A stretch of DNA of 10,970 nucleotides, taken from positions 1 to 10,970 of IMG/VR virus record IMGVR_UViG_2541047932_000014, one strand, 5' to 3'. A model generated the notes under the pieces. It did no database searches and was not told the origin of the DNA. It saw only the letters and a program-made list of their open reading frames with translations. Every line of letters begins with the position of its first letter. Position 1 is the stretch's first letter. The translations under genes were made by a program, and so were the position numbers. Source of the DNA: a virus. Lineage: Duplodnaviria > Heunggongvirae > Uroviricota > Caudoviricetes. Of the stretch, positions 4,755 through 6,012 are shown piece after piece.

Positions 4755-4781
4755 TGTAGTGGCACACTAAATTTGGCCACC
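4755..4781. repeat. Left terminal inverted repeat (IRL) of the IS3-family element
   Basis: TGTAGTGGCACACTAAATTTGGCCACC; its partner is the reverse complement of 5986-6012. The first 8 bp are identical and the internal TTGGCCAC block is conserved. Confidence 0.8.
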
Positions 4782-4802
4782 TGATGAAAGGTGATATTCT
4801 CA
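4774..4802 (+). promoter_or_regulatory. Candidate weak sigma70 promoter within IRL reading into orfA (by analogy with IS911 pIRL)
   Basis: TTGGCC - 16 nt - TATTCT upstream of the orfA RBS. The match to consensus is weak; this is position-based inference only. Confidence 0.25.
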
Positions 4803-4826
4803 CCACAACACAAAACAGGTGACTTA

Positions 4827-5138
4827 ATGAACAAGAAAACCAAACGAACCTTCACCCCTGAGTTCAGGCTGGAATGTGCACAGCTGATTGTTGATAAGGG
4901 CTACTCATATCGACAGGCCAGTGAAGCGATGAATGTCGGTTCAACCACGCTTGAGAGCTGGGTACGCCAGCTCAGGCGAGAGCGCCAGGGTATTACGCCC
5001 TCTGCCACACCCATTACTCCAGACCAGCAACGTATCCGCGAGCTGGAAAAGCAAGTTCGCCGTCTGGAGGAACAAAATACGATATTAAAAAAGGCTACCG
5101 CGCTCTTAATGTCCGACTCGCTGAACGGTTCACGATAG
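4827..5138 (+). CDS. IS3-family transposase OrfA (helix-turn-helix / leucine-zipper regulatory protein)
   Basis: ATG at 4827 preceded by the RBS-like AGGTGA. 103-aa product [20 protein letters not shown]...[18 protein letters not shown]. The track ORF begins earlier at a GTG (4791), but the ATG at 4827 matches the IS911 OrfA start context. Confidence 0.9.
5087..5093 (+). other. Programmed -1 ribosomal frameshift slippery heptamer A-AAA-AAG linking orfA to orfB
   Basis: A6G motif read as A AAA AAG in the orfA frame, 45 nt before the orfA stop. The -1 frame is open from here into the 5258..6004 ORF (hand translation [60 protein letters not shown]... has no stops). Confidence 0.85.
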
Positions 5139-6004
5139 CCGCCAGACTAAGTGACAGCCACACGGTTGTCAGCCTGTGTTCTGCTCTGGAAATACACCGC
5201 AGCAGTTACCGGTACTGGCGAAAACGACGCGATACGGTTAATCCGGCACGAGTCAGGTTGTGCAGCGAAATACGCCGGGCGTGGAACCAAAGTCGGGGCT
5301 CTGCGGGCGCGCGCACTCTGGCTGAAATGCTGACTCAAAACGGCGTCCCGATGAGCCGTTACCGTGCCGGACGTCTGATGAAATATCTGAACCTGAGCAG
5401 TTGTCAGCCCGGAAAACATCAGTATAAAAATGCCCGTCAGGAGCATACCAGCCTGCCGAATCTGCTTGAGCGTCAGTTCGCAGTACCGGAGCCAGACCGG
5501 GTATGGTGTGGAGATATTACGTATCTCTGGGCAGGAAATCGCTGGTGCTATCTGGCGGTTGTTATGGATCTTTTTGCCCGCAGGGTTATCGGCTGGAGTC
5601 TGTCAGCGCATGCCGATACCGCACTGATAAGCAGTGCCCTGCGGATGGCCTATGAGACGCGTGGCCAACCCCGGGATGTCGTGTTCCATAGCGACCAGGG
5701 AAGCCAGTATACAGGCCTTAAATATCAACAACTTCTCTGGCGTTGCAGAATAAATCAAAGCGTCAGTCGGCGGGGAAACTGCTGGGATAACAGCCCCATG
5801 GAACGCTTCTTCCGCAGTCTGAAAACAGAATGGGTGCCAACGAATGGTTACGCAGGCAAGGACGAGGCCCGGCAGCAAATTAATGATTACATATTGAACT
5901 ACTACAACAGCGTCAGACCTCACCATTATAACGGTGGGCTGACGCCGGAAGAGTCAGAGAACAGATACCATTTTTACTGTAAAACCGTGGCCAATATTAC
6001 TTGA
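5090..6004 (+). CDS. IS3-family transposase OrfB (DDE catalytic domain), expressed as an OrfAB fusion by -1 frameshifting
   Basis: The -1 frame is open from the slippery site to the TGA at 6002-6004. DDE triad: D in WCGDITYL, D in [10 protein letters not shown] in [13 protein letters not shown], with 35 residues between the second D and E and a basic residue 7 positions after E. Confidence 0.85.
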
Positions 6005-6012
6005 CCACTACA
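5986..6012. repeat. Right terminal inverted repeat (IRR) of the IS3-family element
   Basis: CGTGGCCAATATTACTTGACCACTACA, whose reverse complement TGTAGTGGTCAAGTAATATTGGCCACG aligns with IRL. Confidence 0.8.

Follow-up and report, generated by a model that had tools for sequence, protein, structure and literature searches.

Insertion sequences of the IS3 family, of which IS911 is the prototype, are about 1.2–1.55 kb long, are bounded by terminal repeats of the TG...CA type and duplicate 3–5 bp of their target; their two ORFs overlap, one in phase 0 and the other in phase −1, are connected through a slippery A AAA AAG motif and encode a helix-turn-helix region and an rve (DDE) core. By the ISfinder convention, elements sharing >90% nucleotide or >95% amino acid identity are isoforms. 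Insertions of IS into operons are classically polar, and the Q and N antitermination systems of lambda suppress intrinsic as well as Rho-dependent termination, IS polarity included. The locus described here resembles the classical polar insertions of the gal and lambda operons, studied with N- or Q-modified polymerase, in that the IS lies within a transcription unit and the downstream genes need antiterminated read-through; unlike them, it occupies an intergenic spacer of a late operon.

A second described system bears on the same spacer. The small RNA PasB of enteropathogenic Escherichia coli (EPEC) E2348/69 was mapped to the minus strand of prophage PP6 (NC_011601.1, 1466343–1466261; 83 nt), detected with the Northern probe AATCCCGCAGTGATCGCGGAGCT and found to be expressed and Hfq-dependent, as shown for E2348/69 alone (Pearl Mizrahi et al., PMC8550237). 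PasB has also been described as embedded in a phage structural-gene operon and as widespread beyond EPEC (Zhu, Shabalina, Storz; bioRxiv 10.64898/2026.05.13.724894).

We analysed a window of 10,970 nucleotides, meaning the whole stretch of DNA under study, which holds the tail module of a lambdoid prophage in the order tape-measure 3' part, M, L, K, I, J, lom and the start of stf (Table 1). Our analysis makes it very probable that an active ISEc31-like copy of the IS3 family has recently transposed into the non-coding DNA that separates tail genes I and J, an event limited to this strain.

Table 1. Features of the window and the basis on which each was placed.
Feature	Position	Strand	Basis and remarks
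Window	1–10,970		Start of scaffold KE702283.1, draft E. coli assembly GCA_000461135.1
Tape-measure gene (H), 3' part	22–2205		Cut by scaffold end
Tail assembly gene I, 193 aa	3983–4564	+	ORF and Pfam Lambda_tail_I; final gene ahead of the spacer
pasB homologue, 77 nt	4572–4648	−	Published E2348/69 boundaries mapped on the window; native, outside the IS
pasB intrinsic terminator hairpin	4579–4604	−	Terminator scan; left "flanking hairpin" of the original prediction
Sigma-70-like promoter, TTCACA-N16-AATAAT; probable pasB promoter	4670–4697	−	Scan, 10/12 matches
Target duplication, left copy	4752–4754		Reads GTC, ancestral ATC; empty-site alignment
Complete IS3-family insertion sequence, ISEc31-like, 1258 bp	4755–6012	+	Inverted repeats, ORFs, domains, alignments
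Left inverted repeat (IRL)	4755–4780	+	Opens 5'-TG; identical end in four other copies
Rfam isrC (RF01387) match	4823–4945	+	150.4 bits (gathering score 39), E 2e-37; 5' end of orfA
orfA, 103 aa, HTH_Tnp_1	4827–5138	+	ATG at 4827; frame backed by ORF 4791..5138 and Pfam
A AAA AAG programmed −1 frameshift motif	5087–5093	+	Zero frame of orfA; A6G at IS nt 333
orfB portion of OrfAB transposase, rve domain	5093–6004	+	D230/D290/E326 in OrfAB numbering
Right inverted repeat (IRR)	5987–6012	+	Closes CA-3'
Outward-facing TTGACC inside IRR	6001–6006		Sequence
Target duplication, right copy	6013–6015		Reads ATC; empty-site alignment
Native palindrome, perfect 13 bp, terminator-like on both strands	6031–6060		Upstream of J; right "flanking hairpin" of the original prediction
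Tail tip gene J, 1157 aa, intact	6164–9637	+	ORF and six J-specific Pfam domains; ribosome-binding region its own
lom	9705–10304		Downstream neighbour of J in the tail module

The original prediction had placed between I and J, in their orientation, an IS3-family element with complete terminal repeats, an orfA, an A6G frameshift site and a DD(35)E orfB, and each of these features was recovered where it had been located. The element, which lies on the strand of I and J, has a size and TG...CA termini typical of the family, with ends TGTAGTGG...CCACTACA and inverted repeat arms of 26 nt that are complementary at 20 of 26 positions (77%). Its two ORFs overlap in phases 0 and −1 and are joined by the slippery motif, the −1 frame of orfB being open from 5045 to a stop at 6002–6004. 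The 392-aa frameshift product OrfAB contains D230, D290 and E326 with spacings of 59 and 35 residues, which corresponds to DD(35)E. OrfA matches Pfam HTH_Tnp_1 and OrfB matches HTH_21, rve and rve_3, and the matches to PF01527, PF13276 and PF00665 provide the helix-turn-helix and rve (DDE) core expected of an IS3 element. Against the NCBIfam model NF033516 ("IS3 family transposase") OrfAB scores 360.6 bits, with a cut-off of 160, over model positions 1–368 of 369; among solved structures, the single match was a weak one to OrfA of IS629.

Within the family, the element belongs with ISEc31, a name that rests here on the RefSeq labels of 93%-identical copies. Compared with one such copy (RefSeq "ISEc31 family"), it is identical at 1170 of 1258 nucleotides (93.0%) in a gap-free alignment and at 375 of 392 OrfAB residues (95.7%), so that, measured against this RefSeq-labelled copy, full-length nucleotide identity lies above the isoform limit of 90%. 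The two are alike in length (1258 bp), in their terminal sequences and in the location of the A6G motif at IS nt 333; they differ by 7% nucleotide divergence, and the exact variant of the window is called by RefSeq only "IS3 family transposase, programmed frameshift" (WP_085968792.1). A large class of copies at 90–95% identity carries the label "IS3-like element ISEc31 family transposase" (e.g. WP_106906343.1). The IS911 prototype has the same architecture, and its IRL, Shine-Dalgarno region and frameshift window are closely similar to ours, with the common pattern ATATTAAAAAAGGC...CGCGCTCTT.ATGTC.GACTC.CTGAAC. Nucleotide identity to the IS911A fragments of K-12 is nevertheless about 65% over 764 nt, which rules IS911 out as an isoform and leaves it as a relative. 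The description "IS911-like" in the original prediction thus holds for the branch to which the element belongs, ISEc31-like being the more precise term; some depositors likewise label the OrfB "IS911 transposase orfB". A literature search for a 1258-bp IS3 element returned only a mention of IS600, and WP_085968792.1 was found in no paper.

The element is abundant. It is matched in 2416 of 5426 complete E. coli genomes, at a median of 2 and a maximum of 17 places per genome, and 938 records match it at ≥99% identity. Copies that are 100% identical occur at many unrelated sites on E. coli chromosomes and plasmids, 630 plasmid records match the element (among them records from Klebsiella, Salmonella, Shigella and E. 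fergusonii), and the exact OrfA protein is present on at least 1000 contigs. In the phage collection, by contrast with its flanks, which were matched, the IS was found in no record. Elsewhere the same IS often lies within prophage structural genes, including those for head-tail joining, gpG, tail, tail-tip and tail fibre proteins (e.g. in O111-type strains), and it is also seen in T6SS genes and in ypjA. Several left flanks of copies in other genomes resemble the one in the window (GGATT..TC).

In order to define the site before insertion, the two flanks were joined without the IS and searched against complete E. coli genomes. The uninterrupted site was found in 1445 of them, as GGATT-ATC-GGTGGG, and in the alignment to ATCC 25922 it reads ...CAACAGGATT-ATC-GGTGGGCATG...; the comparison with IS-free related prophages that the original prediction had proposed thus defines the empty site. 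Alignment to this site, together with the exact ends shared by four other copies, fixes the boundaries of the element. The left (I-side) junction, queried with 300 nt at ≥80% coverage, is absent from the 5,426 complete E. coli genomes, and the exact left-junction pattern has no match in GTDB representative genomes; hence the insertion is private to the source assembly. This absence, combined with zero differences from many dispersed copies, points to a recent, strain-specific transposition from an active lineage. The earlier suggestion that the insertion is recent or still active is well supported as regards its age, and the element is probably still capable of transposition, judging from its identical dispersed copies. 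By the usual IS3-family route, OrfAB would have been made through −1 frameshifting, a circular intermediate of the IS would have followed, and this would have integrated with a 3-bp stagger.

What the insertion has changed depends on the spacer that it entered. The distance from I to J is 1599 bp in the window and 60 bp in lambda. The original prediction measured the insertion against lambda, whose gap is indeed short; the baseline is misleading, however, as IS-free relatives of the prophage have a native I–J spacer of 240–343 bp, and consequently only 1261 bp are new here. None of these relatives carries a native 1.6-kb spacer. The 343-bp type is found in ATCC 25922, in phage ASU11 and in the PPompW prophages, and a type of about 240–255 bp in E2348/69 and PhiR12_1. 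The IS sits 57 bp upstream of the pasB −35 element and 18 bp left of the native palindromic hairpin, and interrupts no PGAP-annotated gene. For annotators, the correction to be made is that in this prophage lineage the long I–J spacer is a native stretch and contains a published sRNA gene, pasB.

The two hairpins that had been described as flanking the IS do exist, but they belong to the spacer, occur in IS-free relatives and are unrelated to the element; the spacer being native, they should be taken neither for IS features nor for evidence of decay. The right-hand palindrome, whose folds reach −29.8 and −28.5 kcal/mol (z about −6.4), is identical in the long-spacer IS-free relatives, and ASU11, a phage obtained by mitomycin C induction, has the native 343-bp spacer with both hairpins. 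Short-spacer relatives possess, where the long type has the palindrome, a different plus-strand terminator made of a GC stem and a T-run. The presence of two unrelated hairpin forms ahead of J suggests, at the level of sequence comparison, that the requirement for a terminator separating pasB from J is conserved. In relatives with pasB bodies that diverge by about 25%, the long-type half of the spacer (4720–4754 plus 6016–6163) is near-invariant.

Given such a spacer, the effect of the IS on the genes downstream of it has to be weighed. During lytic growth the Q-antiterminated late transcript would cross the 1.26-kb insert, and J, lom and stf would still be expressed, perhaps at a lower level. 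Alternatively, the IS could be strongly polar, in which case late transcription would halt before J, no tail tips would be made and the prophage would be defective. This outcome, which we consider unlikely, draws on the classical polarity of IS insertions, on the native hairpin that comes straight after the element, and on the insert itself, since 1.26 kb with a sequestered orfA ribosome-binding site would make a good Rho substrate. However, lambdoid late transcription is Q-antiterminated and passes terminators, the native hairpins are present in ASU11, which is inducible, the terminator scan predicted no plus-strand intrinsic terminator inside the IS, and none of the tail ORFs in the window is broken or of unusual length, gene I having the length annotated for it in ATCC 25922. 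Tolerated read-through is favoured because no internal plus-strand terminator is predicted, because both hairpins are found in the inducible ASU11 and because Q-modified polymerase ignores terminators and Rho; strong polarity is thus less likely than tolerated read-through. As for genome size, the PPompW genomes measure about 44.3 kb and the capacity limits of lambda-type packaging leave room if the head is lambda-like, in which case the extra IS DNA should fall within capacity.

Read-through also bears on the element itself, as the original prediction had proposed that transposase expression might become coupled to late transcription. When the read-through RNA is folded, the MFE and centroid structures alike pair the CACCUG of the IRL (4777–4782) with CAGGUG, the Shine-Dalgarno sequence of orfA (4816–4821). 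Sequestration of this kind is a classical means by which IS elements blunt activation by outside transcription, and both sequence blocks are conserved in IS911. The fold of the whole read-through leader is not better than that of its shuffles (z −1.5), and there is no covariation to draw on. Since the IRL is predicted to pair with the Shine-Dalgarno sequence, read-through RNA would not raise transposase synthesis strongly, and late transcription as a driver of transposase synthesis is weakly disfavoured by these models.

The left hairpin and the minus-strand promoter to its right are best understood through PasB. The PasB interval published in PMC8550237 lies between I and J of E2348/69 and aligns to window positions 4648–4572, and both the probe and the coordinates map onto the hairpin region of the spacer, at the same position and on the same strand. 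PasB of E2348/69 resembles the window copy in starting a few nucleotides past the stop of I, in lying on the opposite strand, in sharing the terminator stem and in having a conserved promoter upstream; the two differ in a divergent body (77 nt in the window, 83 nt in E2348/69, with many substitutions) and in the terminator loop. From these correspondences, the left hairpin and promoter constitute the gene unit of the published sRNA. The terminator (−14.4 kcal/mol, z −3.6) is followed on the minus strand by the tail U7AUUCUUU, and its hairpin is also present in IS-free relatives. The probable promoter, which is near-consensus and located 65–118 bp right of the terminator hairpin, has in relatives an invariant −35 element and a −10 element of TATAAT or GATAAT. 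As to the 5' end, the published start maps to 4648 and the best promoter predicts one near 4663. Expression of the window copy is predicted from this promoter-like site and the terminator. The pasB half of the spacer is carried by 1704 genomes, which fits the wide spread published for PasB. AgvB, AsxR and Esr41 were considered as identities for the spacer sRNA and rejected, no Rfam match being present there at E≤1.

Two unannotated ORFs cross the insertion site; both are split by the IS, and neither gained support as a gene. The plus-strand ORF (66 aa, ATG at 4723) is annotated, as hypothetical, only in ASU11, and the region varies too little among relatives to test for coding; that it is a real gene is unlikely. 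The minus-strand ORF (61–89 aa) was discarded as a disrupted protein gene: its C-terminus is frameshifted between relatives, it overlaps the pasB promoter and PGAP does not annotate it. A change in PasB output or the splitting of a genuine 66-aa spacer gene, either of which would give the strain an altered phenotype involving a prophage-encoded regulatory RNA, is in our estimation quite improbable.

More broadly, the IS might exert a regulatory effect in the lysogen, through PasB, whose expression could change if the DNA ahead of its promoter were displaced, through a promoter formed by the IRR and its flank that would drive J and lom, or through an IsrC-like Hfq-binding RNA. The proximity of the IS to the pasB −35 element (57 bp) would speak for the first of these, but the core promoter and the terminator of pasB are untouched. 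A promoter for J derived from the IS or its flanks had been put forward in the original prediction, and the IRR indeed contains an outward TTGACC; yet no acceptable −10 element lies at 16–18 bp from this hexamer and the scan called no plus-strand promoter, and any such transcript would run straight into the hairpin at 6031–6060. This hybrid promoter was rejected, as a usable −10 is lacking and the palindrome comes immediately downstream, so that driving of J from the IS is weakly disfavoured. The 5' end of orfA matches isrC at 150 bits, but thousands of copies share this IS 5' end, which is thus not specific to this locus. RF01387 describes a Salmonella "island sRNA" family and is matched by the first 123 nt of the orfA region; the family thus appears to represent the start of the mRNA (5' end) for an IS3-family transposase and would then match every copy of the IS. 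Altogether, a regulatory effect of any of these kinds is improbable.

The preferred reading of a recent transposition into the I–J spacer leaves one irregularity, in the target duplication. The occupied site reads GTC/IS/ATC, a duplication of 3 bp, as expected for the IS3 family, with one mismatch (A to G in the left copy). GTC is found at this position in 0 of 1450 IS-free records, all of which read ATC. Four further copies, 100% identical and located in unrelated contexts, have the same first and last bases as the IS of the window, and two of them are surrounded by perfect 3-bp duplications, TAT and AAT. The imperfect duplication is odd beside the 1258 bp of the IS itself, which are unchanged relative to many copies, and the G may reflect a genuine substitution, a product of repair or an error of the draft assembly. 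That an IS copy was misplaced in the scaffold during assembly is extremely improbable: the scaffold is a draft with N gaps nearby, the IS is a multi-copy repeat and the duplication has its one-base oddity, but the junctions contain no Ns, fall at the exact IS ends and flank the 3-bp duplication of one single site, uninterrupted in relatives, a pattern that a mis-join would not yield.

The event is of an ordinary and already known kind, involving an element that is already annotated and abundant in E. coli; prophages commonly carry IS insertions, and this one has little weight in itself. In practice it can serve as a strain marker, and it provides a natural test for whether a lambdoid late operon tolerates a 1.26-kb insert.

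With respect to the wider prophage, the window starts at the scaffold end, within the tape-measure gene, and only the tail module is visible. At the other end stf meets a run of Ns, so that its apparent length of 171 aa reflects an assembly gap and no truncation. Downstream, the scaffold continues with genes for tail-fibre assembly and a methyltransferase, yciE/F/G-type genes and trpA/B/C; the prophage thus adjoins the yciEFG/trp region in GCA_000461135.1, and this downstream context agrees with that of the PPompW prophages, from which the flank matches in the phage collection derive. Among 15 billion indexed proteins, the exact I and J proteins were found only in GCA_000461135.1. J has 1157 aa here and 1230 aa in ATCC 25922, and the tail-tip allele of the window is therefore a distinct variant.
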